64,000 bases of DNA from an uncultured Clostridia bacterium. GTDB taxonomy: Bacteria; Bacillota; Clostridia; Christensenellales; UBA1242. The stretch spans positions 10,274 through 74,273 of the forward strand of contig CALWRJ010000023.1 in NCBI GenBank assembly GCA_944383915.1, written 5' to 3'. Shown one piece after another: positions 17,175 through 60,789 of the stretch. The notes under the pieces are model-generated. The model was not told the origin of the DNA, did not search any database, and saw nothing but the letters and a program-made list of their open reading frames with translations. Each line of letters opens with the position of its first letter. Within the stretch, counting starts at the first letter, position 1. The position numbers and the translations under genes are program-made.

Positions 17175-17506
17175 GGCGAAAAAATTTTCGCTACGCGAAA
17201 AACATTTTCGCACTCAAAACAAAATGCTTATTCGCTACGCTCAAATTAGCAATTAGCAGGTAGCAATTAGCAATTATGGAGTTATTACTTAAATATTTAG
17301 GTATTCCTGCCTTAATTACTAATTAATTAAAGTTTTTTTTGTTACGCGCGGTTCGGCGGGGATAGAGCCCCCGCAGGCTCAATACGCCTTCGGCGAGTAC
17401 AATACTCTTTTATTATACCCAGCCTTAACTGCTAACTGCTAATTGCTAATTGCTAATTTGAGCGTAGCGAATAAGACTGCTAATTGTTAATTGCTAATTG
17501 TAAATT
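17175..17506. repeat. mosaic intergenic element L1
   Basis: GCGAAAA..TTTTCGC hairpins. AATTAGC-type array 17244-17275 is inverted relative to the GCTAATT-type array 17427-17458. The flanks CTTATTCGCTACGCTC / GAGCGTAGCGAATAAG are also inverted. GC cassette at 17343-17400. Preceded by a ~110-nt T/G-rich tract. Confidence 0.9.
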
Positions 17507-17526
17507 ACAACAAGGTTGTAATTTAC
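17500..17526 (-). terminator. 12-bp-stem hairpin overlapping the stop codon of ORF 17523-18320
   Basis: GTAAATTACAAC-AAG-GTTGTAATTTAC. Confidence 0.5.
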
Positions 17527-18320
17527 ATATAGTTCTCATAAAACGAAGCCAAGCGATTTTGGAGTTCCATATTATAAAATCTAACTGATTTAATGGGCGC
17601 GAGCAAATTATTTAGGCTGATTAGGAGCGCGTTTAAAATTTTAAAGTTTTTGAGTTCGATTGCGGTAATGAGAGCGTCTAGGGTGATGTTTAGGTCATCG
17701 AAGCGGTCGGGCTTGATGTGTGTGTCGAGTTTGATAGTTTCTTTAATTTGGTTGAAAATAATTTTCAAGTCCTCAAACAACGATTCGACCGAGTTCACCT
17801 CGTTCTCCTCCTCCAAAATTTCGTCATTTTCGTCTTGAATTCTTTCGTCTAAAATCATATTCTTTTGTTCCCCTTTTTTTGTTTTAAACCCCACCCAATC
17901 GCACAAGTATTCGCAAAACGGGTCGACCATTTCATCATTGAAACGGTGAAAACTTTCCGCCAAACTTTCCGCCGAAAAATACTGGTGCACGAACTCCTGC
18001 AAGTCTAGTTTCCTAGTATCAAATTCGGTGAGCACGCTAAAAACGAGGGCGATGACGCGGTAAGGCTCGGCAGGGAGATTGATGTGCTGATTTCCTTCCA
18101 AGTCTACGCTCGTGCATTTATTCATTTCGCTTTCAAGATTAAAGCCAACGAGCGCGTCCCCAACGATTTCCACAAGCGTAGGACTAGACACAATACTACG
18201 GAGCACTTTGCTAACTTTCGCGTCCGCTAAAATAATTTTTGAGCCTTTCAACTCCTGGCAAGCATCGTAAAATGCCTTGATTTGCTCGTTTTCCACAACA
18301 ACCGCCTCCATTTTTTGCAT
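17523..18320 (-). CDS. hypothetical acidic protein (265 aa)
   Basis: ORF track only. No motif recognised. The stop codon lies inside a 12-bp-stem hairpin. Confidence 0.5.
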   Translation of the reverse strand: MQKMEAVVVENEQIKAFYDACQELKGSKIILADAKVSKVLRSIVSSPTLVEIVGDALVGFNLESEMNKCTSVDLEGNQHINLPAEPYRVIALVFSVLTEFDTRKLDLQEFVHQYFSAESLAESFHRFNDEMVDPFCEYLCDWVGFKTKKGEQKNMILDERIQDENDEILEEENEVNSVESLFEDLKIIFNQIKETIKLDTHIKPDRFDDLNITLDALITAIELKNFKILNALLISLNNLLAPIKSVRFYNMELQNRLASFYENYM

Positions 18321-18461
18321 AATTATACATTATTATAGCATATATGCGAAAAAATTAAAAATGATTTTATGCCTTTTTCCAACAAAAATGTACAAAGTTT
18401 TAATTGCTTAAAGTAAATCATTGTGGTATAATAAAATCGTTTTATCAAGGGAGAAAGTTTT

Positions 18462-19004
18462 GTGAAATTAGAATTTAGCAATGATGATTTTAAGACGAAG
18501 TTAATGCTTCTTTATATGCTCGAGCAGATTGAAATTCCACTCACCGAACAATTTATTTTGGACATTTTGACGACTCGAAACGACTGGATAAATTATATGG
18601 AGTGCGTGTCCGTTTTCCACGATTTGCTTCGCGATGGCTTTATATACACCCCAGACGGCGAGGATTCGCAACGCCAAAGATACACGCTTTCGGCAAAAGG
18701 CAGGAGCGCGCTCGATATCTATTACGAGGAAGTCCCAGAAAATATTCGCCAGGAAATGAGCGAGTTCTGCAAATCAAACAGAATGTACTTTAAAAGGCTT
18801 CAAGAGTTTGTCGCCGATTTCCGCAAAAATAGTGACGGTACATACCTTGTCACCCTGCGAATTATCGAAACGGCGAGCAGTGAGCCGATGTTTGAGATTA
18901 GCATAAACTTGCAAACAAGGGCTGACGCTGTGCGTGCTGTCGAGGTTTGGACGGACAAAGCGCCAAGTATGTACGAATTTGTGTACACGAATCTTTTATC
19001 TTAA
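18462..19004 (+). CDS. DUF4364-family protein (180 aa)
   Basis: GTG start after AGGGAGAAAG. The N-terminal pattern KLMLLYML..I..PLT..QI.DIL resembles the Clostridia DUF4364 family (recall). Confidence 0.5.
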   Translation: MKLEFSNDDFKTKLMLLYMLEQIEIPLTEQFILDILTTRNDWINYMECVSVFHDLLRDGFIYTPDGEDSQRQRYTLSAKGRSALDIYYEEVPENIRQEMSEFCKSNRMYFKRLQEFVADFRKNSDGTYLVTLRIIETASSEPMFEISINLQTRADAVRAVEVWTDKAPSMYEFVYTNLLS

Positions 19005-19025
19005 AAATAAGGGGGCAAAAAAAAT

Positions 19026-19343
19026 ATGGAAGTTTATAGACCAGATGGCACCTGTGCCAGACAAATTTTATTTGAGGTGGACAAAAACGGAATTTTGACC
19101 GACCTTCGCATTTTAGGTGGTTGCCCAGGTGGAATGCAGGCACTAATTCGATTTAGTGTAGGGCGACCAGTGGCGGAAATTATAGACAAGTGCTACGGAA
19201 TAAAATGCAAGAACAACACGAGTTGCCCCGAACAACTCGCGCTCGCGCTCCGCTATTACATCGAGCGCAAACAAAGAGAAAGACAGGGCGAAATTAACGA
19301 ACACCACCCACGCGGACACCCAAAAACTTTGCCGATACACTGA
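19026..19343 (+). CDS. TSCPD-domain protein (TIGR03905-like, 105 aa)
   Basis: AAGGGGG RBS. Motifs GGCPGG and TSCPEQLALAL are typical of the small TSCPD-domain family. Confidence 0.65.
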   Translation: MEVYRPDGTCARQILFEVDKNGILTDLRILGGCPGGMQALIRFSVGRPVAEIIDKCYGIKCKNNTSCPEQLALALRYYIERKQRERQGEINEHHPRGHPKTLPIH

Positions 19344-19406: not shown

Positions 19407-21515
19407 TTAAGCCGTTGTTCTGCCCCCATCACCTGCTGTGCGTTCAGTTGATGCGGTTGCTGCGTTTCTCTCTCGTGTGCTAGCATTGTTGCGTGCTGCT
19501 TGCTCTAGCCTTTCTTGAACATTTGCTGGGTTAATTGATTCCATATAACTATTTAAAAGGTCTATTTCCTCATCAGTTAAGGTGTCTCCTGCTGCCATTC
19601 TTTCCACTAAGTCTTGCGCTCTTGCGAAGTCGTCAGCAGTTAATGGTTGCTCGGTTTGCTCTTGTACAACTGGTGGCACTTCACCTTCTAATGCTTCCGC
19701 TTCCATTGGTGTTGCCTCGGGCGCTTGCGCTTCGGCGGCTTGTTGCCTACCTTCCCATGTACGCATATCAGGTCTTGAAGTCAACTCTGGATTAAACACT
19801 GCGTCCATTTGGTCTTGCGATACCCATCTTTCGTTGATAACTTCTTGATTAAATGGCTTTTGAATAGGGCCTTCATTCTTAAATTCCTCTTGTGCTTGCT
19901 TAACAACTTCATCAAGCCCTAATTTTGATGGTGGCGTGTTGCCACTAAGAATTGCATCAATGTTCGCCTGCGTAACAGGTTTGCCACGGTCTTGCAAAAC
20001 TTTGAGTTCCTCGTAAACTTGCAAGTCTACAACTTTTCCGTTTACCTCGTACTCCCCTTTTTCGTTCTTGCCTAATTGGTAACCAACAGGGTTGTTGTAA
20101 TAGTCTTGCATACCTTGGCTAGCGTTTGCCATTGCGTCTGCCATATCTTGAGTTCTTTGCTGTTCTGCTTGTTTTTGTTGTTCAACTTGCTGGTTGTATG
20201 CGTCAACGAAACCAGATTGTTGAAGGGTTTCCGCCATTTGTTTACCCATGGCTTCTCTCGCCTTTTTCTCTTGAAGTTCTACATCCCTACTCTGTCTTAA
20301 AGCAACTTCTTTAAAAGCAAGTCCGTTTATAGTAATAGTTTGTCCGTCCTTAGAGAAAGTAACCTCTTTGCCCTGGTTGATTTTAATCAAAGTGTTTTTG
20401 TTTGCCTCAATCATAGCAGTTGTGATTTCAACGCCGAATTGTTGAGTTAGGTAATCGCTCAATTCTTGCGCGTTTACCTGGTAATTAGCGATTTCATCCT
20501 TAGTTTGTTTAAGCCACGCGTCATAGTCCGCCGCGTTTTTCTTAATAAATGTACCGTCTTTTTGTTGAATGTAGTGGTAGTCCTTCGTCTTAATGTGGCG
20601 AAGTCCATCAAGGTCGGTCGTCATACTCTCAAAGTCTTTTGCTCTTAAAGTCTCGTCTACGCCTGGAATGTTGATTTTCGACCTCCACAAGTGCCAACGC
20701 GCGCGAAGTTTCAAGTCGCCCGTGTCACCCTTGTAACAGTGCGTTTCGGACAAAAACGGGTTACCTGTAATTTCCCTAACATTCGCACCAATATCAAGGC
20801 TCTTAATTTTCCAACATCCTGCGACACAGCCCTTTCCTATTACTTCTGTTTTTGGTGGGAACACAAAATCTCCACGCCCACCAAAACGCGCACGGCGTTG
20901 GTCCACAAGATTTTTGCACCCTGCCCACGCATAATCACCAATGATACGAACCTCACAGTCTGGTCCATATGTAACGTGGCGAAGGTGCGGGTTGTCCGCA
21001 CAAGCGCTGTTTCCTATTTCTACCACATTGCGCATTTTATCAAGTGGCAAATCACGAATTGCAGTGCCACGAAGTGCGTTGTCGCCGATATAGGTTGCTT
21101 GTTCTAGCACTTCAAAATTAGCATCTACAAGATTTCTAGCGCCATCAAAACTCCCCGCTGGAATTCCGTCAAGTATGGGTGAAAAACGAACCACACGCAA
21201 GTGCATTGCGTTTTGCGCATAGTTTGGGTCGATAGACCTAACGGTTGGGTCCATAACAATACGGAACATAGTTTTCTTGTCCGCATCACTAAAACGCCCT
21301 GCCTCTACCGCGTGAACGACCTTTTCTCCTAAAAATTTTGGAACGACTTGGCTCAAAGCATCACTGCTCGCCTCACGCATTTCTCTGCCTGCCAAAGTGA
21401 ATCTCATACCAAAATTAGATAATGCCGTTGCATAACGATTACGGTCGCGAGGTGGATTAGCATTCGCCATAGCAACTCTTTCTGCATCGGTCAATGGTTG
21501 GTTTGGTTCTGCCAT
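19407..21515 (-). CDS. large cytoplasmic protein with degenerate LRR_5 (BspA-type) repeats and a long Q/E-rich C-terminal region (702 aa)
   Basis: ORF-track ORF 19407-21560. I prefer the ATG at 21515, 8 nt after GGGAG. LRR_5-like units include IGDNALRG, IGNSACADN, IIGDYAWAGCKNL and VIGKGCVAGCWKIKSL. No signal peptide. Visibly higher GC than its neighbours. Confidence 0.55.
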   Translation of the reverse strand: MAEPNQPLTDAERVAMANANPPRDRNRYATALSNFGMRFTLAGREMREASSDALSQVVPKFLGEKVVHAVEAGRFSDADKKTMFRIVMDPTVRSIDPNYAQNAMHLRVVRFSPILDGIPAGSFDGARNLVDANFEVLEQATYIGDNALRGTAIRDLPLDKMRNVVEIGNSACADNPHLRHVTYGPDCEVRIIGDYAWAGCKNLVDQRRARFGGRGDFVFPPKTEVIGKGCVAGCWKIKSLDIGANVREITGNPFLSETHCYKGDTGDLKLRARWHLWRSKINIPGVDETLRAKDFESMTTDLDGLRHIKTKDYHYIQQKDGTFIKKNAADYDAWLKQTKDEIANYQVNAQELSDYLTQQFGVEITTAMIEANKNTLIKINQGKEVTFSKDGQTITINGLAFKEVALRQSRDVELQEKKAREAMGKQMAETLQQSGFVDAYNQQVEQQKQAEQQRTQDMADAMANASQGMQDYYNNPVGYQLGKNEKGEYEVNGKVVDLQVYEELKVLQDRGKPVTQANIDAILSGNTPPSKLGLDEVVKQAQEEFKNEGPIQKPFNQEVINERWVSQDQMDAVFNPELTSRPDMRTWEGRQQAAEAQAPEATPMEAEALEGEVPPVVQEQTEQPLTADDFARAQDLVERMAAGDTLTDEEIDLLNSYMESINPANVQERLEQAARNNASTRERNAATASTERTAGDGGRTTA

Positions 21516-21602
21516 AAAAAATTCTCCCTTTTTTCTTTTATTATAGTTATATTGTACCATTTTTCAAATAAAATGTCAATATTTGTAGGAAAAAAACTAA
21601 AT

Positions 21603-24303: not shown

Positions 24304-24312
24304 TCGCCCCCC

Positions 24313-26798: not shown

Positions 26799-26956
26799 CC
26801 CATTATCTCCTTTTAATCTTATGATATGAAAATATTTTTTTCAAAATTAGCAATTAGCAATTAGCAATTAGCAGTTAAGGAAGTTATTTCCTAAATAATA
26901 ATTTATTAATTTCAACCACAATTCCTAATTACTAATTATTAATTATTTTATTTTTT

Positions 26957-27030
26957 GTCCTACGCGGACAGCGGTGCGGTAGACCGCACAAGTCATTAGC
27001 GTATGCAAGCATACGCGAAAGTCCGTAAAT
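26957..27030 (+). repeat. GC hairpin cassette c1 (74 nt), identical to 45057-45130
   Basis: GTCCTACGCGGAC, GTGCGGTAGACCGCAC, CATTA, GCGTATGC-AA-GCATACGC, GAAAGTCCGTAAAT. Confidence 0.9.
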
Positions 27031-27090
27031 ATTATTGCTTTTCTTTTTTTACTATACCCAGCCATAACTGCTAATTGCTAATTGCTAATT

Positions 27091-27156
27091 CGCGTGCAAC
27101 GCGTAAGCCCCCGCTGGCTCATTAGCGTATGCAAGCATACGCGAAAGTCCGTAAAT
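27091..27156 (+). repeat. GC hairpin cassette c3
   Basis: CGCGTGCAACGCG hairpin, then TAAGCCCCCGCTGGCTCATTA, then the same GCGTATGC-AA-GCATACGC hairpin and the GAAAGTCCGTAAAT tail. Confidence 0.9.
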
Positions 27157-27261
27157 AATATTGCTTTACTTTATTTTGTTTTTGATTAATTAAAAAAGGA
27201 AGTTTATTTATCTATTAAAAAGCTTCGCGCGCACGCGCACATTAACTGCTAATTGCTAATT

Positions 27262-27292
27262 TTTTATTAAAACTTTTCAAGTTTTAATAAAA
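27262..27292 (-). terminator. 12-bp AT-rich hairpin with the PBP stop codon in its loop
   Basis: TTTTATTAAAAC-TTTTCAA-GTTTTAATAAAA. Confidence 0.45.
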
Positions 27293-29994: not shown

Positions 29995-30499
29995 AGTAGT
30001 ATACTCACCCCCCTTCGCAAATATCACAAAGTCTTAACTTATTGTTTTTAAGTGCTAACAATTTCCCTTTTACTTCTTTGCTTTTAAAGTGCTATCAATT
30101 TTTAGTCGCCTTTTACTTCTTTGCTTTTTAAGTGCCAACGAAATTTTTCCTAAATAATGATTAGAGTTAGCAAAATAATTTAAAAAACTAACTAGAATAC
30201 ACTTCTAATTACATATATTATATAATTTTTTTCGCAAATCTCCAAATAAAATGAACAAAAATTTTTCTGCAAATAAAAAAATTTTTAAAATTAGGAATTA
30301 GAAATTAGGAATTAGGAATTGCGGAGTTATTATCTTGAATATTAACTTTCTTATATATAATCATCTATTTATATTATTTAGAGAACAATATAATAAATCA
30401 TTTTATTTAACAAATTATTTAATAAATTAATAAATAGAGCAAACATAACCAGCAAATAAAAAACACTTGTTAAAAAAGTGTATAACTTAATTGTACCAA

Positions 30500-30513
30500 C
30501 GAACAAATGTTCT
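30500..30513. promoter_or_regulatory. LexA (Cheo) box CGAACAAATGTTCT within a promoter-like context
   Basis: 13/14 match to CGAACN4GTTCG. Plus strand: TTGTAC (30491-30496), 16-nt spacer, TAAAAT (30513-30518). Minus strand: TACAAT immediately adjacent. Confidence 0.55.
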
Positions 30514-30852
30514 AAAATATTTCAAGAGCAAAAAAGTAACAAAAAGGAAGTTTATATATTGCGTGCAAAGGAAGTAATATTTAATTAAATATTAATTTTA
30601 TATCCAGCCACAATTACTAATTCCTAATTTCTAATTATTAATTTGGAAGGTTTCCTTCCTTAATTCCTAATTAAACAAAAGCAATGAGAGTAAAACTCTC
30701 AAAGTACTATAACAAGCGATTATTGAAATACAACAACTAAAAAATCAAGGATATATCATGAGAGTAAAACTCTCATTGTATTATAATTATTTTATTAATT
30801 GACATAGTCTTTAATGTGCTTAAATTATAAGTTAATGCTTTATTCGTACTAA

Positions 30853-30866
30853 CGAACATATGTTCT
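30853..30866. promoter_or_regulatory. LexA (Cheo) box CGAACATATGTTCT
   Basis: 13/14 match to the consensus. Lies in a direct repeat of the 30493-30550 module. Confidence 0.5.
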
Positions 30867-30968
30867 AAAAATATTAAGGGTAAAAAAGCAACAAAAAACA
30901 AAACAACAAAAAAGGATAAAATATTAATTTCATCCTTAATTCCTAATTACTAATTCCTAATTGCTAAT

Positions 30969-31001
30969 TTAGAAAAAATTTGTATTTCAAATTTTTTCTA
31001 A
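30969..31001 (-). terminator. 14-bp AT-rich hairpin covering the rsmH stop codon
   Basis: TTAGAAAAAATTTG-TATTT-CAAATTTTTTCTAA. Confidence 0.45.
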
Positions 31002-31925: not shown

Positions 31926-31955
31926 ACTTTTACCTCCTTACGCAACTTCGTTGCG

Positions 31956-32352
31956 AATTAGCAATTAGTAATTAGCAATTAGCAGTTAAGGATGAAATTA
32001 ATTTTTTATCCTTTTTTATTGTTACCAATCTCGTTTAAATTAGCAATTAGCAATTAGCAGTTAAGGAGTTATTTCTTTAAATACTTATAATCTAATAGAT
32101 TTCAGCCTTAATTCCTAATTACTAATTCCTAATTCCTAATTATTTTGCACTCCGTGCGGGGCGGGGATAGAGCCCCCGCTGGCTCATTAGCGAACAAAGT
32201 TCGCGTTCGCTCCGCTCAAATTAGCAATTAGAAATTAGGAATTAGGAATTAATGAATTTATTTATCTTAAATAATATATTTTTTAATATTCCTTCCTTAT
32301 TACTAATTACTAATTTGGAAGGTTTCCTTCCTTAACTGCTAATTGCTAATTC
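31956..32352. repeat. mosaic intergenic element L5 (upstream of rsmH)
   Basis: AATTAGC/AATTAGT arrays at 31956-31985 and 32039-32060. CCTAATT arrays at about 32109-32141. GC cassette at 32147-32205. AATTAGG array at about 32219-32250. GGAAGGTTTCCTTCC. GCTAATT array ending about 32351. The CGCAAC-TTC-GTTGCG hairpin (31941-31955) abuts the rsmH RBS. Confidence 0.9.
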
Positions 32353-32374
32353 GCGCGCCAGCGAGTAACTTCGC

Positions 32375-32775
32375 AAACTTCTACCAGTTTACAATCTTTG
32401 TAGGAGCAGATTGTCGCTCCGCTCAATCTGGTTGCGGTAGATTGCAAGTTTTTATATCTTGCAAACTTCAACCAACCTGCAATCTTTGTAGGAGCAGATT
32501 GTCGCTTCGCTCAATCTGGTTGCGGTGAATTTTATGCTAACGCATTTTTAGTTGGTTTCACATACGCTCTACCATCACAATTCTATAAGAGCAGATTGTC
32601 GCTCCGCTCAATCTGGTTGCGGTAGATTGCATGTTTTTATATCTTGCAAACTTCAACTAACCTGCAATCTTTGTAGGAGCAGATTGTCGCTCCGCTCAAT
32701 CTGGTTGCGGTGAATTGTATGCTAACGCATTTTTAGTTGGTTTCACATACGCTCACCAACTCACAATTCACCTGA
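32375..32775 (+). repeat. ~185-bp higher-order tandem repeat containing four 47-nt units
   Basis: CAATCTTTGTAGGAGCAGATTGTCGCTCCGCTCAATCTGGTTGCGGT at 32392-32438, 32480-32526, 32578-32623 (5' part diverged) and 32665-32711. The interleaved segments are also repeated. The last unit runs into the 3' end of the metallophosphoesterase gene. Confidence 0.9.
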
Positions 32776-33437: not shown

Positions 33438-33450
33438 AAAAACTCCTTCT

Positions 33451-33619
33451 GTCGCTTGCGCTCCAATTTTGAATTAGGAATTTTGAATTTTGAATTATTG
33501 CTAGGTATATTATTTAATTTTATATAATACCTTCCGCAATTCCTAATTTCTAATTCCTAATTCCTAATTTGGAAGGTTTCCTTCCTTAACTGCTACCTGC
33601 TAATTGCTAATTGCTAATT
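33451..33619. repeat. mosaic intergenic element L6
   Basis: TTGAATT-type array, CCTAATT array, GGAAGGTTTCCTTCC and a GCTAATT array. Sits between the metallophosphoesterase RBS and the TGCATAGTAC cluster. Confidence 0.9.
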
Positions 33620-33692
33620 CCTTATTGTTTTATTATACCAATTTACCAACTCATTTGCAAGTGTTTTCTCTTTTAAAACGCAATAAAGCAAT

Positions 33693-33747
33693 TGCATAGT
33701 ACTAAATAAAGTTTGCATAGTACTTGCGTAATACCTATGCATAGTAC
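33693..33747 (+). repeat. 3 copies of TGCATAGTAC (spacing 21 and 24 nt)
   Basis: Copies at 33693-33702, 33714-33723 and 33738-33747. Confidence 0.9.
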
Positions 33748-33974
33748 TTAAAAATTGTGTAAAAATGGCAAATTTGTTAAATTTTGCAAAAATACAATGA
33801 AAATTTCAGCCTAAAAACTATTTTAGGTTTAACAAATAACTTTTCAAAAATTTCTTTCGCCTACCCTATTTTCTAGTAAAGGTAGCAATAAAATAATAAA
33901 AAAACCACCCCTAAATTTACTTTACTTATAATTTATTTTAAAATGTTTAATATGTCCAAATTTTTAGTTTTATA

Positions 33975-34003
33975 TAAAAAGGCGTGCTAGATTAAGCACA
34001 CCT
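33975..34003 (-). terminator. rho-independent terminator of ORF 34073-34741
   Basis: Minus-strand AGGTGTGCT-TAATCT-AGCACGCCT, followed by TTTTTAT. Confidence 0.7.
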
Positions 34004-34072
34004 AAAAGGTAAAATTACCTAAAATATATTTACTTAGCCAAACGCTAAGGTGCAGAGATAAATCTTACGGGT

Positions 34073-34823: not shown

Positions 34824-34916
34824 GAATTTTGCCTTGGAGTGTGCAATGCACACGGAAAGCCAGCCGAAAGTAAGAGTAATTGTCAAAGTGAGTGGCTCAC
34901 GGCTGAACTTTGAATT
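34824..34916 (+). repeat. conserved 93-nt module, copy 1 (candidate structured RNA)
   Basis: GAATTTTGCCTTGGAG-[GTGTGCA-A-TGCACAC]-GGAAAGCCAGCCGAAAGTAAGAGTAATTGTCAAAGTGAGTGGCTCACGGCTGAACTTTGAATT. Confidence 0.8.
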
Positions 34917-35180
34917 AGGAATTTTGAATTAAGGCTTTACGCTTCGCCTTTGGCTACGCTAAATTAGAAATTAGGAATTAGGAATTAGGAATTAAGGAAG
35001 GAAACCTTCCAAATTAGTAATTAGAAATTAGGAATTTTATTCGCTACGCTCAAATTAGCAATTAGCAGTTAGCAATCTACCACGCAAAGCGAGAATTAGC
35101 AATGAGCAATTAGCAATTAGCAGTTATTGTGCGCGTGCGCGCGAAGCAATTATAGATAAATAAACTTCCTTACAATATTT

Positions 35181-42952: not shown

Positions 42953-43427
42953 AATTAGCAATGAGCAATTAGCAGTTAGCAGTTAAGGATGAAATTTATA
43001 TTTTATCCTATTTATTGCTTACTAACTCGTTTTAATTTTACTTGCTACACAAGAATTAGCAATTAGCAAAGAATGAAGGAAATTTATCTAATTAATATCT
43101 TTAAATAATTCCCAGAATATTTACTAATGCCTAATCACTCATTAAATAGAATAAAACTTTCCAACTGCGCAACATAAATTAGCAATGCTTAATTTAAATA
43201 TTACCTTATTGTTGACTTTTTGCTTTGTCACCTTCGCTTTAAATTTTGAATTAGGAATTTTGCCTTGGAGTATGCAACGCATACGGAAAGCCAGACGATA
43301 GTTAGAGTAATTGTCAAAGTGAACGGCTTACGGCTGAACTTTGAATTAAGGAGTTATTTTCAAAAGTAATTTTATATTTAGAAAATTCCTTCCTTAACTG
43401 CTAATTGCTAATTGCTAATTGCTAATT
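42953..43427. repeat. mosaic intergenic element L10
   Basis: AATTAGC-type arrays at 42953-42983 and about 43054-43068. 93-nt module copy 3 (43255-43347). (GCTAATT)x4 ending at 43427. The hairpin TTATTTTGGAC-AAA-GTCCAAAATAA (42928-42952) lies in the B-subunit leader. Confidence 0.85.
43255..43347 (+). repeat. conserved module, copy 3
   Basis: Same flanks as copies 1 and 2. The hairpin is changed to GTATGC-AAC-GCATAC. Confidence 0.8.
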
Positions 43428-43717
43428 TTATGAATTTTAATTCATAATCAGTTTGATTTTACCACAAATTTTCAAAAATAGAAAATTATTTTGCGCATAA
43501 ATTTCCACTTTTTCGCAGAATTTCACCCAAATCGCCCGTATTTTTGCCAAAAATATTATAATTATGCCTTATAATTTTTTATTTTTTTCTAAAAAAAGCA
43601 CTATAATTAAAAAGTGATAAACTGTTAAAAAGCATAGTTTTTTCTACTTATCATAATTTACTTATAAAATTAAATTACTTGCATATAATATAATTATTAT
43701 TAAAGGGGGTAAAGAGT

Positions 43718-44785: not shown

Positions 44786-44801
44786 AACCTTTCAATTTTT
44801 T
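44776..44801 (+). terminator. AT-rich hairpin at the murG stop
   Basis: AAAAAATTGAAA-CC-TTTCAATTTTTT, including the TGA at 44783-44785. Confidence 0.5.
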
Positions 44802-44883
44802 AATTTTAATTTTATTATTTTGCCACTTTTAGTTCTTGTTTTTTATTTTTGTTTTTATTTATTTTTGGTACTTTTTCTGCTTA

Positions 44884-45516
44884 AAAATTTCCGCTACGCG
44901 AAAACATTTAAGCAAAACAAACAAAATGCTTATTCGCTACGCTCAAATTAGCAATTAGCAGGTAGCAATTAGCAATTATGGAAGTTATTTTCTAAATAAT
45001 ATTTTAATTAATTCCCAGCCACAACTCCTAATTCCTAATTCCTAATTACTATTTATGTCCTACGCGGACAGCGGTGCGGTAGACCGCACAAGTCATTAGC
45101 GTATGCAAGCATACGCGAAAGTCCGTAAATTTTTAACTGTTGTTTTTATATTTACTTAATTTTAAACTTAAAGGCTATAATATATCAATATTTTTTAGAT
45201 ACTTTCAAAATTTCTAAAAGCGGAGTAAAATTAAATAAGTATAAGTAGCAAGAAATTTTGTCCGTAATTCAAAATTCAAAATTCAAAATTGCGCGAAGCG
45301 CTAAGCCTTAACTGCTACCTGCTAATTGCTAATTGCTAATTCGCGTGTAACGCGTAAGCCCCCGCTGGCTCAATAGCGAACAAAGTTCGCAAATAATTAA
45401 ATTACCCAGCAATAATTCAAAATTCCTAATTCAAAATTCAAAATTCGAGCGTCAGCAAGTAGGCTTGCGCGCTAGCGCCCCGTAATTCAAAATTCAAAAT
45501 TCAAAATTCAAAATTT
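44884..45516. repeat. mosaic intergenic element L11 (longest, about 630 bp)
   Basis: Order: GCGAAAA module; CTTATTCGCTACGCTC; AATTAGC array; AT linker; CCTAATT array; GC cassette 45057-45130; fold-back module 45206-45260; AATTCAA array; GCGCGAAGCGCTAAGCC; GCTAATT array; GC cassette 45342-45390; AATTCAA arrays flanking GTAGGCTTGCGCGCTAGCGCC. Confidence 0.9.
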
Positions 45517-45542
45517 AAAAAAGGCACTTCTGTGCCTTTTTT
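45517..45542 (-). terminator. bidirectional rho-independent terminator at the fba stop
   Basis: AAAAAAGGCAC-TTCT-GTGCCTTTTTT. Confidence 0.7.
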
Positions 45543-46687: not shown

Positions 46688-48091
46688 ATGATTTCACTCG
46701 TGGTTACCGCGGACACCAAAAATTACAACCCCGCCGAGCGCGACTTAGCCTTTTCGGCGTTGCTTGCAAAGTACAAAGAACCATTTGAAATTGTGTATGT
46801 TGCGAACGCAGACTACCCCTACCTTGACGAACTCCGTAAAATCGCTTCTGGAAATGACAGAAAACTTGTAGTTACTGCGCCAACAACGAATATTAATACA
46901 CAAATCTACACAGCACTAGACTATACGGACAACGGTGATGTTTTGCTAGCGACACTAGACACCAATCTTGCTCTAATTCAGAAAATTATCGAAAAGCACC
47001 GTGAAGGCGCTGATTTGGTATTTGTTAAGCAACAAGAAAATTGGTTTAAAAATATGTTTATCGCACTTGGGCGCGCTACCTATCAATTAGGGCTAAAAAT
47101 ACTCGGGCGCGGGCACGATATGTGCTGTGACGCGCGCGTCTTGTTTTTAAACAATCGTTCGGTAAATACAATTATTTTAAACCCAACTTTAAGTAAGGCT
47201 TTAAGGCTTGTCAACCCAGACCCTGACAAAACTTCGCGCATTCTTGACGAAAAAGTCATTTACGACAACCCCACGCCTACGCAAAAAGGCGCAAACAATT
47301 CGTTTATGTCGCTTGGTATCGTTTCGCTATTTTATATAATTGCCCTACTTGTCCTTGCAATCGTTTTCCCACTATGCAATTCGGGCGTTTACACCGTTTG
47401 GATACTTGTCGCACTAATTTTGTGGCTTGTACTAGGAATTATCGGCTGTGTCGTTGTCGCGAAATTTATTTACAACACGCGACTAGGACTGCCCGTTGCT
47501 ATAAATCTGGCTGGCGAGCCGATAATTAATATTACCGAAGTCGTGGCAAGCGAATACCAAACTGTATTTGACGAAAACGAACCAATTACTACCCCAAACA
47601 CCGCTTTCGCTGATGAAATTGATGAAAATGAAAGCGAAAATGTCGATGTTGATGTAGTAAATCTTGACGAAACGATTGTAGACCTTGATAACACAGAAAC
47701 CGCAGAAAATGACACAAAGTCTGCGCAAAACGAAACAAAGGACGCAAAAACAAGCGCTAAGGCAAAACAAAGCGCAACTTCAAAAGCGAAAATTACTTCA
47801 AGTAAAGCAAGAGCGCAAAGCGAAACAGACACTTTAAATATTGCTGAAACCGAAAACACGACTAAAAAAGCAGAAAACACTTCAAGCGATGCTAAAACGG
47901 AAAGCGCCAAAACAACTAAAAAAGCAACACAATCCCCTAGCACCGCAAAGAAAACAACAACTAATAAGAAAACGACTAAATCAAGCACGAAAACAACAAC
48001 CAAAAAAGCAAGTGCTACTAAAACAACCGCAAAAAAATCAACTAAAACAGGCGCAAAGAAACCGAAGGTTTCAGTGCGTAACCGCACTTCA

Positions 48092-48097
<6 letters not shown>
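46688..48097 (+). CDS. membrane protein with a degenerate GT2-like N-terminal domain and a K/T-rich disordered tail (469 aa)
   Basis: N-terminal 190 aa loosely GT2-like (EIVYVANADYP, GDVLLATLDTN). Two TM helices and a low-complexity lysine/threonine tail. The TAG stop (48095-48097) is inside the first AATTAGC heptamer of the downstream repeat. Confidence 0.55.
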
Positions 48098-49514
<1,417 letters not shown>

Positions 49515-49515
49515 A

Positions 49516-49572
49516 ACAACTTCGTTGTAAATCAAAAATCTTTTAAAAAACAATTCTTAACAACGAAGTTGT
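49516..49572 (+). terminator. 13-bp inverted repeat after gap (31-nt loop)
   Basis: ACAACTTCGTTGT (49516-49528) and ACAACGAAGTTGT (49560-49572). Confidence 0.35.
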
Positions 49573-49743
49573 AATTAGCAATTAGCAATTAGCAGTTGTT
49601 GTGCGCGTGCGCGCAAGCCTACTTGCTTCGCAAGAATTATCAGTTAATGCTGGGTATTAAATTAATATTATTTAGATAATTTCATCCTTAATTCAAAATT
49701 CCTAATTCAAAATTCAAAATTGGAGCGAAAGCGACAAAAGGAG
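49573..49743. repeat. mosaic intergenic element L13
   Basis: (AATTAGC)x3, then GTGCGCGTGCGCGCAAGCCTAC, an AT linker and an AATTCAA-type array. The terminal module GGAGCGAAAGCGACAAAAGGAG carries the RBS of the TM2 gene. Confidence 0.9.
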
Positions 49744-50224: not shown

Positions 50225-50227
50225 CAA

Positions 50228-50255
50228 GCGAAGCAGTAATTACGCTCCGCTTTTT
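50228..50255 (+). terminator. putative terminator after the TM2 gene
   Basis: GCGAAGC...GCTCCGC stem (1 mismatch) followed by TTTTT. Confidence 0.45.
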
Positions 50256-50289
50256 AAATTTTAAATTTTGTTTTAATTTTATGATATTT

Positions 50290-50565
50290 AGCAAAAATTT
50301 TTGCTGGTAGCAAAATCTTTTTGCACATAAAACAAAATGCTTCGCATTATTTTTTGCACTCCGTGCAGGGCGGGGATAGAGCCCCCGCAGGCTCAATAGC
50401 GTATGCAAGCATACGCGGAAGTCCGTAAATACAATTTCTTTGCTTTTTTATGTTAATGCTAAATTATGCTAGTTAAAAAAGGTTTTCATTTTCTTTAAAG
50501 CTTCGCGCGCTAGCGCCCCTTAATTCAAATTTCCTAATTCAAAATTTAAAATTCGAGCGATAGCG
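50290..50565. repeat. mosaic intergenic element L14
   Basis: GCAAAAATTTTTGC-type hairpins. GC cassette at 50356-50430. Junction GCTTCGCGCGCTAGCGCC. AATTCAA-type array. CGAGCGATAGCG module. Confidence 0.85.
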
Positions 50566-50572
50566 AAAAAAG

Positions 50573-52489: not shown

Positions 52490-52533
52490 AACTTCTATTA
52501 TATCATTATAAATAGAATTTGTAAATAAATTTA

Positions 52534-52905
52534 CTCGCTTTGCGTGAATTAGCAGTTAGCAATATACTACGCAAAGCGAGAATTAGCAATGAGCAATCTT
52601 ATTCGCTAACGCTCAAATTAGCAATTAGCAATTAGCAGTTAATGTGCGCTAGCGCGCAAACAATTTATAGTTAAATAAACTTTCTTTTAATTTAAAATTA
52701 ACAAAATAAAGAAATGTAATAATATTTACGGACTTCCGCGCATTTATGCGCTATTGGGAGTGCGCCTTCGCACCGCACCGCGCGTAGCGGAAAAAATAAA
52801 ATAATTAGGAATTAGTAATTAGGAATTAAGGATAAATATATATTTATTTTGTTTCTGTGCAAAAAGATTTTGCGCTAGCAAAAATTTTTGCCAAAATCTA
52901 ACAAA
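52534..52905. repeat. mosaic intergenic element L15
   Basis: 12-bp-stem hairpin CTCGCTTTGCGT...ACGCAAAGCGAG (52534-52580) enclosing a heptamer array. CTTATTCGCTAACGCTC plus an AATTAGC array. GTGCGCTAGCGCGC. GC cassette at 52734-52790 (minus orientation). AATTAGG/AATTAGT array. GCAAAAA hairpins. Confidence 0.9.
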
Positions 52906-52934
52906 AACAAAAACTCTACAAAAAAAACAAAAAA

Positions 52935-54997: not shown

Positions 54998-55073
54998 TGC
55001 ATAGTACCTAAATTTGCGCATAATTTTATGTTAAAATGCGTGCATAGTACTATGCATACTACTTGCATAGTAC
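54998..55073. repeat. cluster of 4-5 TGCATAGTAC-type motifs including a perfect 16-bp palindrome
   Basis: TGCATAGTAC at 54998, 55041 and 55064. TGCATACTAC at 55053. Degenerate TGCGCATAAT at about 55015. TGCATAGTACTATGCA at 55041-55056 is a perfect palindrome. Confidence 0.9.
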
Positions 55074-55142: not shown

Positions 55143-55415
55143 TTAAGCAATTACAGAAACAACTTTCTTGTTTTGCTTTGTGCGTGTAAATTTCACAGTA
55201 CCTGCTTTTGTGGCAAAAAGTGTGTAATCTCTACCACAGCCGACATTGTCCCCAGCGTGCACTTGTGTGCCGCGTTGACGCACAATAATTTCGCCTGCTT
55301 TAACAAGTGTGCCGTCCGAACGCTTGATACCTAAACGCTTTGCTTCGCTATCTCTACCGTTCTTACTGCTACCTTGTCCTTTCTTGTGGGCGAATAATTG
55401 AATATTAATAAACAT
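55143..55415 (-). CDS. rpmA: 50S ribosomal protein L27 with a cleavable N-terminal extension
   Basis: ORF-track ORF 55143-55469. True start is the ATG at 55415, after [18 protein letters not shown] matches the Prp cleavage motif of Firmicutes L27. Confidence 0.9.
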
Positions 55416-55737
55416 TGTTGACCTCCAATTCAATAAAATCGCTGTACTCGCTATATAAGTCCCCAACACCGCACATCATTGTTGCAAAAATTACTTGCAC
55501 ATCGTGTGCGACTTCGCTAGACAAATTTTGCGGTACTATTATTTCCAAATAGGCTTCATCGCGAATTATTTCGACCCCAGCACCCGCAACCGTGAGCATT
55601 CCCAGCGCCGCCGTCTGCACTATGCTACTAATCGCACTGCAAACGATGTCCTCGCCTTCTACTCCGTAGCCTGTGTGCCCAGAACAAATAATTCTAGTGT
55701 ACTTATCGCCTTTTTTGAAAACTTGTATACTTGTCAT
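55405..55737 (-). CDS. prp: ribosomal-processing cysteine protease Prp
   Basis: Located between rplU and rpmA. Motifs SGHTGY and DIVCSAISS are typical of Prp/YsxB. GGAGG RBS. Confidence 0.8.
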
Positions 55738-55758
55738 AATGACCTCCTACTTTAAGGT

Positions 55759-56067
55759 CTATTTCTTTATAGCATCGATTTTAATCTTGCTAAAAGGTTG
55801 TCGGTGACCTTGTGCACGGTGGTGCCCATTCATCTTTTTGTAAATGGCTAGTTGCACCTTTTTACCTTTTCCGTGTTCAAGAACGGTAGCAGTAACACTC
55901 GCGCCTGCGATTTCAGGGTTGCCGAAAACGCTTCCCTTCTCATCACCAAGCATAAGCGGAACAAAAGTAACCTTAGAATTAACTTCTGCGTCAAGGCGTT
56001 CTACATTAATAACATCGCCAGCCTGCACCTTGTACTGCTTGCCACCTGTTTTGATAATAGCGTACAT
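55759..56067 (-). CDS. rplU: 50S ribosomal protein L21
   Basis: MYAIIKTGGKQYKV N-terminus and GHRQPFSKIKI. First gene of the rplU-prp-rpmA operon. Confidence 0.9.
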   Translation of the reverse strand: MYAIIKTGGKQYKVQAGDVINVERLDAEVNSKVTFVPLMLGDEKGSVFGNPEIAGASVTATVLEHGKGKKVQLAIYKKMNGHHRAQGHRQPFSKIKIDAIKK

Positions 56068-57287: not shown

Positions 57288-57707
57288 TTAAAGCAACAAA
57301 TCGTCAATATAGCAGTTTAAATATTTTGCAATTTCAAGTAGGTTCGCAACACTCGGCACAACGCCCTTTTTCCACCTTAAAATATTATCTGGCGAATAAT
57401 TTAAATCTCGGCAAAATTTCCTAAACGATATATTTTTATTTTTTATAAAAGTTGATAAATTATGATAAAAAATTTCGCTATCGAACGAATAATTGCCCGA
57501 AAAGTCGTTTTCGTCCTTTAAATTAAACAAATAATCAATCGAAACTTTTAAATAATTCGCAATTTTTATTACAGAATTAAGGCTTGGATACCTTTGCTTA
57601 TATTTATAAAAGGTATTTTTTGAAATTACATTATCAATAAATAAATTTTCCGTACTTTTATTTTGCTCGGCTAAAATATTTTTAACTAACTCCGAAAAAG
57701 TAATCAT
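57288..57707 (-). CDS. XRE-family transcriptional regulator with two tandem HTH domains (139 aa)
   Basis: Two HTH_XRE-like segments (SLNSVIKIANYLKVSIDYLF and SVANLLEIAKYLNCYIDDLL). AGGGGAAAA RBS. A TGCATACTAC site lies about 55-65 nt upstream of the start. Confidence 0.65.
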   Translation of the reverse strand: MITFSELVKNILAEQNKSTENLFIDNVISKNTFYKYKQRYPSLNSVIKIANYLKVSIDYLFNLKDENDFSGNYSFDSEIFYHNLSTFIKNKNISFRKFCRDLNYSPDNILRWKKGVVPSVANLLEIAKYLNCYIDDLLL

Positions 57708-59340: not shown

Positions 59341-59343
59341 AAA

Positions 59344-59372
59344 AGCATTTCAAAAATCGAAATGCTTTTTTT
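59344..59372. terminator. bidirectional terminator between convergent genes
   Basis: AGCATTTC-(loop)-GAAATGCT, flanked by an A-run and a T-run. Confidence 0.65.
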
Positions 59373-59401
59373 AATAAAATCTATCCAAGTCAAAGTCTGT
59401 G

Positions 59402-60412
59402 TTATAATGTGTGTGTTTCTCGGGAATTCTCGTTAGCACCGCGGAGTTCCATACTTTCGATAACATCTTTCATAGTTTCGGGAGTATAGAGTGGCTCAAA
59501 AATATCTTTATCGTAATTTATCTTAGAATTGCAAACCGCAAAGCCGAGCGCATAAGCACCACAGCGCGAGAAAACTTCGGCGCGATAGTTATTTTGCGAC
59601 CAATCAGGTTCGAGCAAGAAGGAGCGAATATCGTGGTCAGGCAAAATTTCGTCATCCATATTGCGATATTCGTCATCATATGATTCGTCTCTATCTTTAA
59701 AAAACCTGCGGTCGTTGATTTTATCGGCGTAAAGGTTTAGGGTATTGTCTTTTATAACTAACTCTCCGCACTTTAAATCACAAGGCTCGTCTTTTGTTTT
59801 ATGCGTCAATTTTCTGTACTCGGCTTCGTAAAATCTGCCGAAAAAGTTATCTTTAAAAGTTTTTAGCGCAAAAGTAGTTGGAAGTTTTGAAACATTTTTT
59901 GGCGCGTATGCAAGGTGGAAAATTTGCCCTAGAATTTTTTGCGTTTCCTCTTGGCTGTATCCGTAAATATCCATGGTTTTAGATAAATCATCAATTAAAT
60001 TATAGACAAACTTACTTCCATAACTAAACGAAAACAAGTTAACATTTCGCATATTTTTTATTGCCTGATTCGTTGAAATGCGCTCGCCCTGTCTAACAAC
60101 TAACGGCAAAAATAAGTGCTTGTTTATTGTTTTTATATCGAGCGATGGCATTTTCGCAATGTCTGTATTTTCATCGTGATTATACGAAATTGAATAAATA
60201 TCTAAATAATTATCCTCTGGTGTTAAATTTAGCAAACGCTCGGCAGTCTTTGCCATAAAGTTTGCATACCTATCAATAACCGTGTTGTTTCCCCCAAAAC
60301 ATAACAACACAGGCTTTTTTGTATCGATATCAGTTAATTCTACGCGCTCCCACCCGACATTGTTTTCGCTAGTTTTAGGAACGCGGTGACCAAAAAACAT
60401 TTCCACTGCCAT
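59402..60412 (-). CDS. hypothetical protein, possible alpha/beta-hydrolase fold (336 aa)
   Basis: Strand-turn LLCFGGNN and a nucleophile-elbow-like SFSYGS, with a later LPDHD. Weak, motif-level only. Confidence 0.4.
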   Translation of the reverse strand: MAVEMFFGHRVPKTSENNVGWERVELTDIDTKKPVLLCFGGNNTVIDRYANFMAKTAERLLNLTPEDNYLDIYSISYNHDENTDIAKMPSLDIKTINKHLFLPLVVRQGERISTNQAIKNMRNVNLFSFSYGSKFVYNLIDDLSKTMDIYGYSQEETQKILGQIFHLAYAPKNVSKLPTTFALKTFKDNFFGRFYEAEYRKLTHKTKDEPCDLKCGELVIKDNTLNLYADKINDRRFFKDRDESYDDEYRNMDDEILPDHDIRSFLLEPDWSQNNYRAEVFSRCGAYALGFAVCNSKINYDKDIFEPLYTPETMKDVIESMELRGANENSRETHTL

Positions 60413-60560
60413 AATTTCACTTCCTTAAATTTAAAAATTAAAGCAGATATTACTATAAAATATATAAGTAAACCGCCTACATAAACAGCGCGTTAATTCT
60501 CTTTATGCATACAATTATACCACAAAAATAGCCACTTGTAAAGGGCTTTATCGCAAATCC

Positions 60561-60789
60561 TTACGCTTCGCCGTTCGGCTTTGCTTAAATTAGTAATTAG
60601 GAATTAGAAATTAAGAATTAAGGCTTAGCGCTTCGCCGTTGGCTCGCTTTAATTTTGAATTAGGAATTAGGAATTTTGAATTAAGGCTGAAATAATCTAA
60701 ATTATATTTTATACCCAGCAATAATTGCTCATTGATAATTGCTAATTGCTAATTCGCGTGCAACGCGTAAGATTGCTAATTTGAGCAAA
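60561..60789. repeat. mosaic intergenic element L16
   Basis: CTTACGCTTCGCCGTTCGGCTTTGCTT plus AATTAGT/AATTAGG arrays. CTTAGCGCTTCGCCGTTGGCTCGCTT plus TTGAATT/AATTAGG arrays. AT linker ending in ACCCAGCA. GCTAATT array. CGCGTGCAACGCG hairpin. Confidence 0.9.

Follow-up and report, generated by a model that had tools for sequence, protein, structure and literature searches.

The stretch of DNA analysed here (the window) comprises 64,000 nucleotides of contig CALWRJ010000023.1 (assembly GCA_944383915.1) from an uncultured Clostridia bacterium, and its subject is a family of modular repeats, built around tandem heptamers with an AATT core, that is present in 16 of its intergenic spacers. All positions and repeat counts refer to this window. 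The dcw cluster is contiguous (mraW, a penicillin-binding protein (PBP) gene with PASTA domains, murE, mraY, murD and ftsW), and the other genes include a gyrB/gyrA-type topoisomerase pair, murG, fba, gap, tpi, pgm and genes for leucine-rich repeat (LRR) proteins of the BspA type. Proteins closest to GyrB/ParE and the PBP came from metagenome-assembled genomes (MAGs) of uncultured gut Clostridia/Christensenellales. A cyanobacterial host, suggested by the heptamers, was rejected on the grounds of the dcw cluster, the PASTA-domain PBP and the best protein matches to Clostridia MAGs.

A preliminary description, made from the sequence alone, had reported AATT-core heptamer arrays and their point variants in the spacers. 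We detected 44 in-phase arrays right of 17 kb, 42 of which lay inside the 10.4 kb of concatenated spacers, where 200 dinucleotide-preserving shuffles gave a mean of 0.05 arrays and a maximum of 1. The heptamer arrays are real and non-random. A strict scan retained 30 arrays (898 nt in total) made of AATTAGC, AATTAGG, AATTCAA and AATTACT units in both orientations, with the variants AGGTAGC and AACTGCT. Dozens of period-7 arrays were found by Tandem Repeats Finder between 17.2 and 60.8 kb, and none of that type in 1-17 kb. A conservative self-BLAST showed that 4,885 of the 10,971 non-coding bases right of 17 kb (45%) were repeated, as were 124 of 35,968 coding bases (0.3%) in the same region and 0 of 4,427 non-coding bases in 1-17 kb. 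This coverage bears out the extreme density claimed earlier, although the figure of about 6 kb of repeat DNA has to be lowered to about 4.9 kb, and the arrays, described as holding two to five copies, nearly all consist of four to five units. Mosaics had been assigned to 16 loci, and sixteen repeat-bearing spacers were indeed counted; the statement that most long spacers are filled from 17 kb onward applies to these sixteen but fails for the spacers of 53.8-60.4 kb, in which self-BLAST detected no member of the family.

The arrays varied little in length, with five AATT cores in 30 of them (33 nt), four in 13 and six in 1 (sd 0.49, n = 44). The basic block is 33 nt long, with five AATT cores at 7-bp spacing separated by the triplets AGC, AGG, CAA, ACT or their complements. 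Several patterns of variant units were shared between arrays: AGC-AGC-AGGTAGC-AGC occurs at 17244, 44946 and, inverted, at 48345; CCT-ACT-CCT-CCT at both 32110 and 37857; and CAA-CCT-CAA-CAA at both 45414 and 49690. This fixed length, together with the shared internal variants, shows that the arrays are copies of a few masters and not free microsatellites. The unit next to a linker is regularly AGTTAAG(G). Non-repetitive composites of 50-100 nt are common to unlinked spacers at 85-96% identity, as seen for the composite families D12, D14, D15, D16 and D17, and the modules recur in differing combinations, as expected of the reshuffled modular family first described.

Array orientation reverses across AT-rich linkers (bounded by TTAAGG..CCTTAA, or of the type ..ACCCAGCC), resulting in fold-back units of 150-480 nt with arms of 26-54 nt that are 78-100% complementary and lie 115-416 nt apart. 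The inverted arms enclose either such a linker or a GC-hairpin cassette. The earlier suggestion that units can fold back agrees with these complementary arms and with predicted folds that are 8-10 sd more stable than shuffles (z -7.8 to -10.6), and the inverted array pairs on which it had been based (17244/17426 and 21630/21780) were recovered. Orientation is kept across the small GC hairpins inside arrays, which are ATMTACYACGCAAAGCGAG and GGAAGG-N3-CCTTCC (five copies of GGAAGG(W3)CCTTCC, with 0 expected). GC junctions are found as inverted pairs at the bases of arms, for example CTTATTCGCTACGCTCA ... TGAGCGTAGCGAATAAG. The junction and hairpin motifs originally listed were all present at multiple loci, and counts of the named motifs were five for GAGCGTAGCGAATAAG, two for GCGAAGCGTAAAGCC, three for GTAGGCTTGCGCGCACGCGC, four for ACCCAGCC and eleven for AGCAGTTAAGG. 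A small module that had escaped the preliminary description is the hairpin TGAGAGTAAAACTCTCA, found three times with similar flanks (30685-30701, 30759-30775 and 37705-37721). Mismatches within the arms (14 G:T, 13 A:C and 42 other) revealed no strand-specific wobble bias, and the complementarity of the arms therefore looks like a DNA-level palindrome rather than a selected RNA helix. RNA-level selection on the arms was rejected for this reason.

Two larger modules complete the repertoire. The GC cassette, with ten full or partial copies, has the layout CGCGG..CGG, hairpin A, ..CAWTAGCG, hairpin B and CGCGRAAGTCCGTAAAT. The stems of its hairpins differ between copies and yet are perfect (CGGGG/CCCCG, GTGCGG/CCGCAC, GTGCG/CGCAC and GGACGG/CCGTCC for hairpin A; GCGTATGC/GCATACGC, GCGAAC/GTTCGC and GCGCAT/ATGCGC for hairpin B), a compensatory pattern that is qualitative only, as just four distinct stems are present and these fall out of register in a MAFFT alignment. 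The end module consists, in order, of a T/G-rich tract, two GCGAAAA..TTTTCGC hairpins, ACTCAAAACAAAATG, a junction and an array. Its tract always adjoins a gene: on the strand of the gene it follows the stop codon (17062, 44786, 50225 and 52934), and on the opposite strand it forms an A/C-rich leader that reaches the start codon (gyrA, 40445; gap, true start 48505). The mechanically called GAPDH open reading frame (ORF) begins at a TTG inside a repeat module (48399-48504), whereas the ATG at 48505, which follows an AAGGAG, is the true start. Repeat modules can thus inflate ORF calls. The composition of the individual spacers is given in the table.

Table. Repeat-bearing features of the window, with their composition and the inverted-repeat (I) and composite (D) families or other basis on which they were delimited.
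Position	Strand	Feature	Composition	Basis
17062-17522		Spacer L1, between two convergent stops	T/G-rich tract 17062-17174; two GCGAAAA..TTTTCGC hairpins 17175-17211; fold-back unit 17227-17475 with 53-nt arms of CTTATTCGCTACGCTCA plus AATTAGC array and GC-hairpin cassette 17345-17402; extra array 17481-17506	Sequence; inverted repeat I1, 91% complementary, -100.3 kcal/mol, z -10.6
21622-21807		Fold-back unit downstream of ftsW	AATTAGC array, TTAAGG..CCTTAA AT-rich linker, AATTCAA array, junctions GGAGCGTAAGCGAG and GCTTCGCGCGCACGCGC, inverted GCTAATT array; ftsW stop codon within right arm	I13/I14, 96-100% complementary; fold z -7.8
26827-27280		Nested fold-back in PBP gene-murE spacer	Inner arms 26845-26880 and 27062-27090; cassette ..CAWTAGCG-GCGTATGCAAGCATACGC-GAAAGTCCGTAAAT twice, 26963-27030 and 27106-27156 (D12)	I10-I12, I18; fold z -8.1
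30279-30969		Arrays and fold-back in spacer from mraW to ftsL-like gene	Arms 30279-30324 and 30608-30653; GGAAGGTTTCCTTCC palindrome 30645; TGAGAGTAAAACTCTCA hairpins 30685 and 30759; stop-proximal CCTAATT array 30937-30969	I5
31942-32369		Cluster of six arrays with overlapping fold-backs	GGGGCGGGGATAGAGCCCCCGCTGGCTCATTAGCG cassette 32149-32209; GGAAGGTTTCCTTCC palindrome 32317	I8, I9, I17
33465-33627	-	Mosaic upstream of metallophosphoesterase gene, between promoter-like site and ribosome-binding site/start	Sense order: AATTAGC array, GGAAGGAAACCTTCC, AATTAGG array, AT linker, AATTCAA array, GGAGCGCAAGCGAC, AGAAGGAG, ATG	
34824-35382		Composite	Structured module of ~100 nt twice, 34824-34924 and 35184-35284; four direct arrays broken by small cassettes (GGAAGGAAACCTTCC at 34996, ATCTACCACGCAAAGCGAG at 35075); fold-back arms 35074-35127 and 35329-35382; LRR gene stop codon in right arm	D15, D17, I2
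37605-37960		Arrays and GC junctions downstream of gyrA	Arrays AATTTTG, AATTCAA and two CCTAATT; D16 94% identical to copy at 33459	D16
40446-40940	-	Mosaic filling gyrB-gyrA intercistronic spacer	A/C-rich tract adjoining gyrA start, GCGAAAA hairpins, GGGGATAGAGCCCCC cassette 40645-40700, arrays around GGAAGGTTTCCTTCC (40889)	Sequence
42949-43431	-	Fold-back between gyrB promoter block and gyrB start	49-nt arms, 92% complementary	I3
44786-45520		Spacer between convergent murG and fba	T/G tract, hairpin, junction and AATTAGC array, 93% identical to 17199-17280; two cassettes (45061-45122, 45355-45390); three AATTCAA arrays; fold-back arms 44928-44981 and 45306-45359; AGGTAGC variant mirrored as GCTACCT	D14, I4, I20
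48089-48504		Fold-back around 160-nt GC-rich core	Arms 48089-48127 and 48342-48380, then reverse-oriented end module (junction, hairpins, A-rich leader with ribosome-binding site) up to gap start 48505; first TAG of array is stop codon of upstream gene	I6
49566-49735		Array unit before gene starting at 49751	AATTAGC array, GC palindrome GTGCGCGTGCGCGC, AT linker, AATTCAA array, GGAGCGAAAGCGAC, then ribosome-binding site	D18
50225-50567		Mosaic	T-rich tract, GCAAAA..TTTTGC hairpins, full-length GC cassette 50358-50423, AATTCAA array and junction	D12, D20
52513-52934		Mosaic	Arrays with CGCAAAGCGAG inverted junctions, reverse-oriented cassette 52733-52786, AATTAGG array; reverse-oriented end module adjoining stop codon at 52935	D15
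60561-60800		Three arrays with GC junctions	AATTAGN, AATTTTG/AGG and GCTAATT arrays	Sequence

The units are placed closely with respect to genes. They begin at or a few bases from stop codons, and arrays provide the stop codons of three genes (21804, 35350 and 48097). In 10 of the 11 co-directional spacers, the array nearest the stop codon has the sense-strand sequence AATTAGN. The divergent murG/gyrB region contains a block, TTATGCGCAAAATAATTTT...TTGTGKTAAAAT, that is conserved in all relatives, where it precedes the gyrB start by 29-50 nt; in the window, this promoter block lies at 43450-43513 (-10-like tgtggtaaaat) and gyrB starts at 42918. Since the fold-back at 42949-43431 is inserted between the conserved promoter-like block and the start codon, it would be part of the 5' untranslated region (UTR) of gyrB. 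A promoter-like TTGCAA-17-TATAAT at 33660-33632 is likewise found upstream of the mosaic at 33465-33627. The junction GGAGCGNAAGCGAC, followed by A(G/A)AAGGAG and ATG, precedes two unrelated genes with starts at 33437 (minus strand) and 49751 (plus strand). Terminator-like sites were not enriched (16 against 21.9 expected, 26.5-46.4 kb), the repeat hairpins do not have the T runs of intrinsic terminators, and a promoter scan revealed no enrichment of promoter-like sites in the repeat units. Judged by the conserved promoter, the units appear to lie in transcribed regions, namely the gyrB 5'UTR, the gyrB-gyrA junction and the dcw operon.

Orthologous sites were compared in relatives, as the preliminary description had proposed for detecting presence or absence of the elements, and they proved to be empty or nearly so. 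Five relatives provided the gyrB region (L123, L126, L128, L280 and L282; 15-22 kb each, ~94 kb of non-redundant syntenic DNA), with GyrB 77-90% identical to that of the window at the protein level and ~75% at the DNA level. No heptamer array and no BLAST match to any module was found in these ~94 kb, and the gyrB-gyrA spacer, 514 nt in the window, measures 10-13 nt in L126, L282 and L128. In L284, the closest relative found (PBP 85% identical, window gene order kept), the metallophosphoesterase-mraW spacer is 30 nt long against 807 nt in the window, and the convergent stops of the Gate gene and its neighbour are 0 nt apart against 461 nt. The spacers from mraW to the ftsL-like gene and from the PBP gene to murE measure 29 and 73 nt, respectively, in both L284 and L286, whereas they extend over 959 and 478 nt in the window. 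A single miniature unit is present in L284 (7335-7438), in the spacer orthologous to 33438-34072 of the window, with the order (TTTGTAG)3, GTGTGCTAGCGCTC, AT linker and CCTAATT-GCTAATT-GCTAATT; it may represent the ancestral state of the family. The presence of this one unit indicates that the family predates the split from L284 and was then massively expanded in the window lineage, and the empty or single-mini-unit sites in six relatives therefore suggest a lineage-specific burst.

Contigs of the same species offered a check at closer range. Four of them (L001, L002, L122 and L130), from two other metagenome samples (ERZ28614008 and ERZ24773235), cover ~16 kb of the window at 99.7-99.96% identity, including eight repeat-filled spacers in full or in part, and their module order and flanking genes match those of the window. 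These independent contigs reproduce the same mosaics, and the repeats are thus not an assembly artefact, a possibility that had been raised at the outset. The differences amounted to eight single-nucleotide polymorphisms (SNPs; 30322, 32473, 37896, 40860, 40909, 40915, 40938 and 40952) and one indel, a 185-nt tandem copy of the 32373-32769 repeat that is missing in L001. All of them were confined to the spacers (~4.4 kb), with none in the coding part (~9.7 kb), and the repeat spacers change faster than coding DNA. At several SNPs the variant heptamer matches its neighbours in the other strain, which is compatible with gene conversion, homogenisation by slippage or low-coverage assembly noise.

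The family had not been recognised in the preliminary description, and searches led to the same result. No module gave a match in Rfam 15 at the gathering threshold; six weak matches appeared at E<=1, below gathering scores and none fitting a module, two of which overlap the edge of 50225-50567 (terminator hairpin at 50570). A tRNA scan of the window returned nothing relevant, and the arrays are made of contiguous 7-nt units with no regular repeat-spacer structure, unlike a CRISPR array. The strings AATTAGCAATTAGC and AATTAGGAATTAGG and their complements had no match in the bacterial literature searched. The 17-nt core of the GC cassette, GGGGATAGAGCCCCCGC, had 79 matches in a metagenome scan, all in unrelated, mostly GC-rich sequence and none with conserved flanks; chance alone would give roughly as many, and the cassette therefore seems to be private to the lineage.

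The heptamers themselves are more widespread. At least 119 stretches of (AATTAGS)3AATTAG were found in GTDB representative genomes, and the phyla among the matches listed include Bacteroidota, Acidobacteriota, Verrucomicrobiota, Cyanobacteria, Patescibacteria, Chloroflexota, Myxococcota, Bacillota and others. Among these listed matches, nothing was shared with the window beyond the heptamers; period-7 arrays numbered 261 against 29 in total for the other periods from 5 to 11, many neighbouring arrays were also AATT-cored, and the layout of an array, a GC hairpin and an inverted or direct array recurred. None of 131 arrays among them lay inside ORFs of at least 100 codons. Counted within 20 nt downstream of stop codons, co-oriented arrays numbered 41 and oppositely oriented ones 13; start codons showed no such bias. 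In a viral collection, AATTAGS formed 37 stretches and composition-matched controls formed 7, 14 and 12; AATTAGS is favoured about three- to five-fold and is not unique. This agrees with the surplus of heptanucleotide repeats known from bacteria (Mrazek, 2007, cited through PMC4679880) and with the TAACTGA repeats that MacGregor (2015; PMC4679880) described in Beggiatoaceae, Cyanobacteria and Bacteroidetes.

Of the known systems, the short tandemly repeated repetitive (STRR) sequences, the repetitive extragenic palindromes and bacterial interspersed mosaic elements (REP/BIME) and the BOX elements had been named as analogues, a comparison that we uphold. The units of STRR1-3 are CCCCA[A/G]T, TTGGTCA and CAACAGT. 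Tandem intergenic heptamers are present in the window as in STRR, but its units are AATT+NNN and its host is not a cyanobacterium. Heptanucleotide repeats of the STRR and TAACTGA kinds (PMC4679880) and the window arrays are alike in their tandem 7-nt units, strictly intergenic and often by gene ends, and in the mixing of related heptamers within a spacer, and the TAACTGC found at the ends of window arrays is one base off TAACTGA. They differ in unit sequence, in the AATT core, the fixed five-core length and the Clostridia host, and in that the window arrays serve as inverted arms of composites. Moreover, the TAACTGA sets of a Beggiatoaceae genome lie mostly just upstream of start codons (PMC4679880), whereas the strongest association of the window arrays is with stop codons.

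REP/BIME elements and REPINs (PMC3116915) are, like the window units, extragenic mosaics of alternating palindromes and a few linker motifs, found after stops and in operons and able to fold into hairpins when single-stranded. The two do not resemble each other in sequence, the window arms are heptad arrays and not single palindromes of 20-40 nt, and no gene for a REP-associated tyrosine transposase (RAYT) is present in the 64 kb. The string CGCTACGC, with 11 copies where 2.5 are expected, is only loosely reminiscent of the REP head GTAG and is not positioned like it. Miniature inverted-repeat transposable elements (MITEs) such as Correia, Nezha and bcr1 resemble the window units in size and structure: the latter are 150-480 nt long, thus below about 600 bp, carry terminal inverted repeats of 26-54 nt and no ORF, and are multicopy, with copies in 16 spacers. 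The resemblance extends to insertion into spacers that, in the window, would be transcribed, and to the empty orthologous sites in relatives. Unlike MITEs, the window units have internally periodic terminal repeats and are modular and reshuffled rather than copies of one master, and neither a target-site duplication nor a parent insertion sequence was identified for them. Pneumococcal BOX elements are composed of boxA, a variable number of boxB and boxC, and are intergenic elements of Bacillota with stable predicted hairpins. The modular build, the intergenic location in Bacillota and the predicted hairpins are thus common to both, but the window modules are different, show no sequence similarity to BOX and are of many more types. 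Finally, the small dispersed repeats (SDR) of Nostoc (Elhai, 2008, as relayed in PMC4390886 and PMC3116915) are hairpin-prone cassettes of 15-27 nt inserted precisely within other repeats; GGAAGGTTTCCTTCC and ATMTACYACGCAAAGCGAG are placed similarly inside direct heptamer arrays of the window, though their sequences and host phylum differ from what is given there for SDR.

Taken together, we consider with moderate confidence that the spacers hold a lineage-specific, non-autonomous copy-and-paste repeat family in an uncultured gut Clostridia genome, with MITE-like units assembled into a REP/BIME-like mosaic. The family is new and its general type is known, that of MITE/BIME-like mosaics based on heptanucleotide repeats with a BOX-like mosaic grammar. 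The heptamer arrays would have arisen once by replication slippage, as part of the general heptanucleotide-repeat phenomenon, and would then have become the terminal repeats or recombination handles of dispersed units. Their spread may have depended on an enzyme acting in trans, with its gene elsewhere in the genome, or on recombination between arrays. Insertions would have persisted only where coding ends, promoters and ribosome-binding sites were respected, and some may now provide the leader and ribosome-binding site of the downstream gene.

Several observations weigh against a mobile family. The 64-kb window, to which all repeat counts are confined, contains no transposase, RAYT or recombinase gene. 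No target-site duplication was definable because the flanks of relatives are only ~75% identical at the DNA level, and the sequence flanking the unit at 42949-43431 continues the palindrome (ATAA..TTAT) and is not a direct repeat. The few same-species contigs displayed no presence/absence polymorphism of whole units, and at their ~2.8x coverage some of the repeat SNPs may be assembly noise. The retention of the AATT core and five-unit length across array types hints at a constraint imposed by sequence reading, and a further hint comes from the strict stop-codon polarity of the arrays; purely selfish spread predicts neither feature.

These last features would be accounted for if the arrays were binding platforms for an oligomeric protein that reads heptads, with the mosaic acting as a genome-wide regulatory or insulating network, an explanation by analogy that we regard as unlikely. 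At the RNA level, AAUUAGN arrays in 3'UTRs and intercistronic RNA would present a UAG every 7 nt, often flanking a GC stem. This layout resembles that of the hut mRNA terminator, where the XAG triplets bound by hexameric HutP are spaced 7 nt apart to either side of a GC-rich stem (PMC2425495). The stop-proximal AATTAGN polarity of the co-directional spacers and the 41 to 13 bias at stop codons among the cross-phylum matches listed, which has no counterpart at start codons, are consistent with such reading, as is the presence of UAG-containing arrays on the sense strand around four of the five GGAAGG-N3-CCTTCC stems; but AATTCAA arrays have no UAG, the fold-back geometry places half of the arrays antisense, and the arm mismatches are free of an RNA-type wobble bias. 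To our knowledge, HutP is found in Bacillota alone, in contrast to AATTAGS arrays, which many phyla contain. At the DNA level, four to five contiguous 7-bp repeats, direct or inverted, would be read in the manner of the ribbon-helix-helix omega/ParB protein on the parS and operators of pSM19035, whose parS requires a minimum of four contiguous heptads, direct or inverted (PMC9499535). The AATT core and the length of four to five units are kept in the window though the triplets vary, but the likeness to both systems is one of layout only, the 7-unit periodicity, and no HutP-like or omega-like gene was seen in the 64 kb. The omega heptad is WATCACW, and the window arrays are AATTNNN. Terminator-like and promoter-like sites are not enriched in the units, and with five relatives that have no elements and a closest relative that has one mini unit, the arrays are therefore not needed for these essential operons. 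By the same analogies, a version in which the five-core arrays are read by an oligomeric protein (HutP/TRAP-like on RNA, omega-like on DNA), with the polarity reflecting a widespread 3'-end or intercistronic mechanism and the window its most expanded form, seems distinctly unlikely.

It is very unlikely that the mosaics came about without any mobility, through slippage in place and palindrome-making template switching, with the likeness between loci due to convergence and gene conversion. Template switching would give cassette hairpins with differing perfect stems at equivalent positions, as observed, and the cross-phylum occurrence of heptanucleotide arrays, the predominance of period 7 among the matches listed, the 7-14 stretches formed by control heptamers in viral contigs and the general predominance described by Mrazek (as summarised in PMC4679880) all agree with slippage. 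Array length is however quantised, the module order (tract, hairpins, junction, array) recurs, and non-repetitive composites of 50-100 nt retain 85-96% identity across unlinked spacers; the sites in relatives, empty or with one mini unit, reveal no gradual growth. An assembly or chimera artefact of the MAG contig, to which repeat-rich metagenome contigs are prone through mis-joins and which the concentration of strain differences in repeats might suggest, has next to no probability, being refuted for the ~16 kb covered by the four contigs from two other samples with eight repeat-filled spacers in the same order.

A number of other features were noted in the window. Positions 1-15950 form a prophage-like region that includes genes for a P22-like portal (4462-6384) and a large terminase (7462-8910); its non-coding DNA, 4.4 kb in all, has no AATT-core repeats. 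The prophage is not present beside the orthologous Gate-domain gene in L284, and homologous phage-like genes sit elsewhere in the relatives L126 and L282. Reading repeat-free spacers as marks of acquired islands works for the prophage (1-16 kb) and fails for 53.8-60.4 kb, where an apparent core rplU-prp-rpmA operon is found. This operon (55143-56067) consists of three small ORFs, the middle one matching a Prp-type peptidase PHROG and the rplU and rpmA identities being based only on size and gene order; its flanking spacers carry no AATT repeats, and one start is probably mis-set since two of the mechanical ORFs overlap by 65 nt. A motif unrelated to the heptamers, TGCATAGTAC, occurs 30 times with one mismatch allowed (2.3 expected), in clusters of 3-7 copies spaced 10-30 nt apart, both in prophage and in host intergenic DNA (251-272, 8906-9111, 10983-11016, 15846-15948, 33693-33747, 54998-55073 and 57761). 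These clusters may serve a regulator as operator array, and the gene of an XRE/RstR-like repressor is found at 57288-57707. Longer tandem repeats include that at 32373-32769 (88-nt period, 185-nt super-unit), which overlaps the 3' end of the metallophosphoesterase ORF and has a unit partly homologous to the 3' end region of the L286 orthologue, and two unrelated to the heptamers, at 11039-11285 in the prophage (57/113-nt period) and at 30045-30139 just upstream of the ftsL-like gene (43-nt period). BspA-type LRR genes are located after ftsW (19407-21560) and after gyrA (35350-37431) in the window, and between gyrB and gyrA (12319-14580) in L123 and L280; they appear to move or duplicate independently of the repeats.

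The family provides an example of the rapid remodelling of a compact bacterial genome by tiny repeats. Spacers of essential operons (dcw and gyrB/gyrA) grew from 0-73 nt to 460-960 nt in one lineage, while the proteins are still 85-90% identical to those of relatives. As the units appear to lie in 5'UTRs, between cistrons and after stops, and some may supply a leader and ribosome-binding site, they are candidate agents of a lineage-specific rewiring of expression. Repeats of this kind also have practical consequences: MAG assemblies are broken up by them and ORF calls inflated. Through the fixed five-heptad arm and the stop polarity, the family is linked to the surplus of heptanucleotide repeats in bacteria, long without explanation, and both features offer a testable handle on it.

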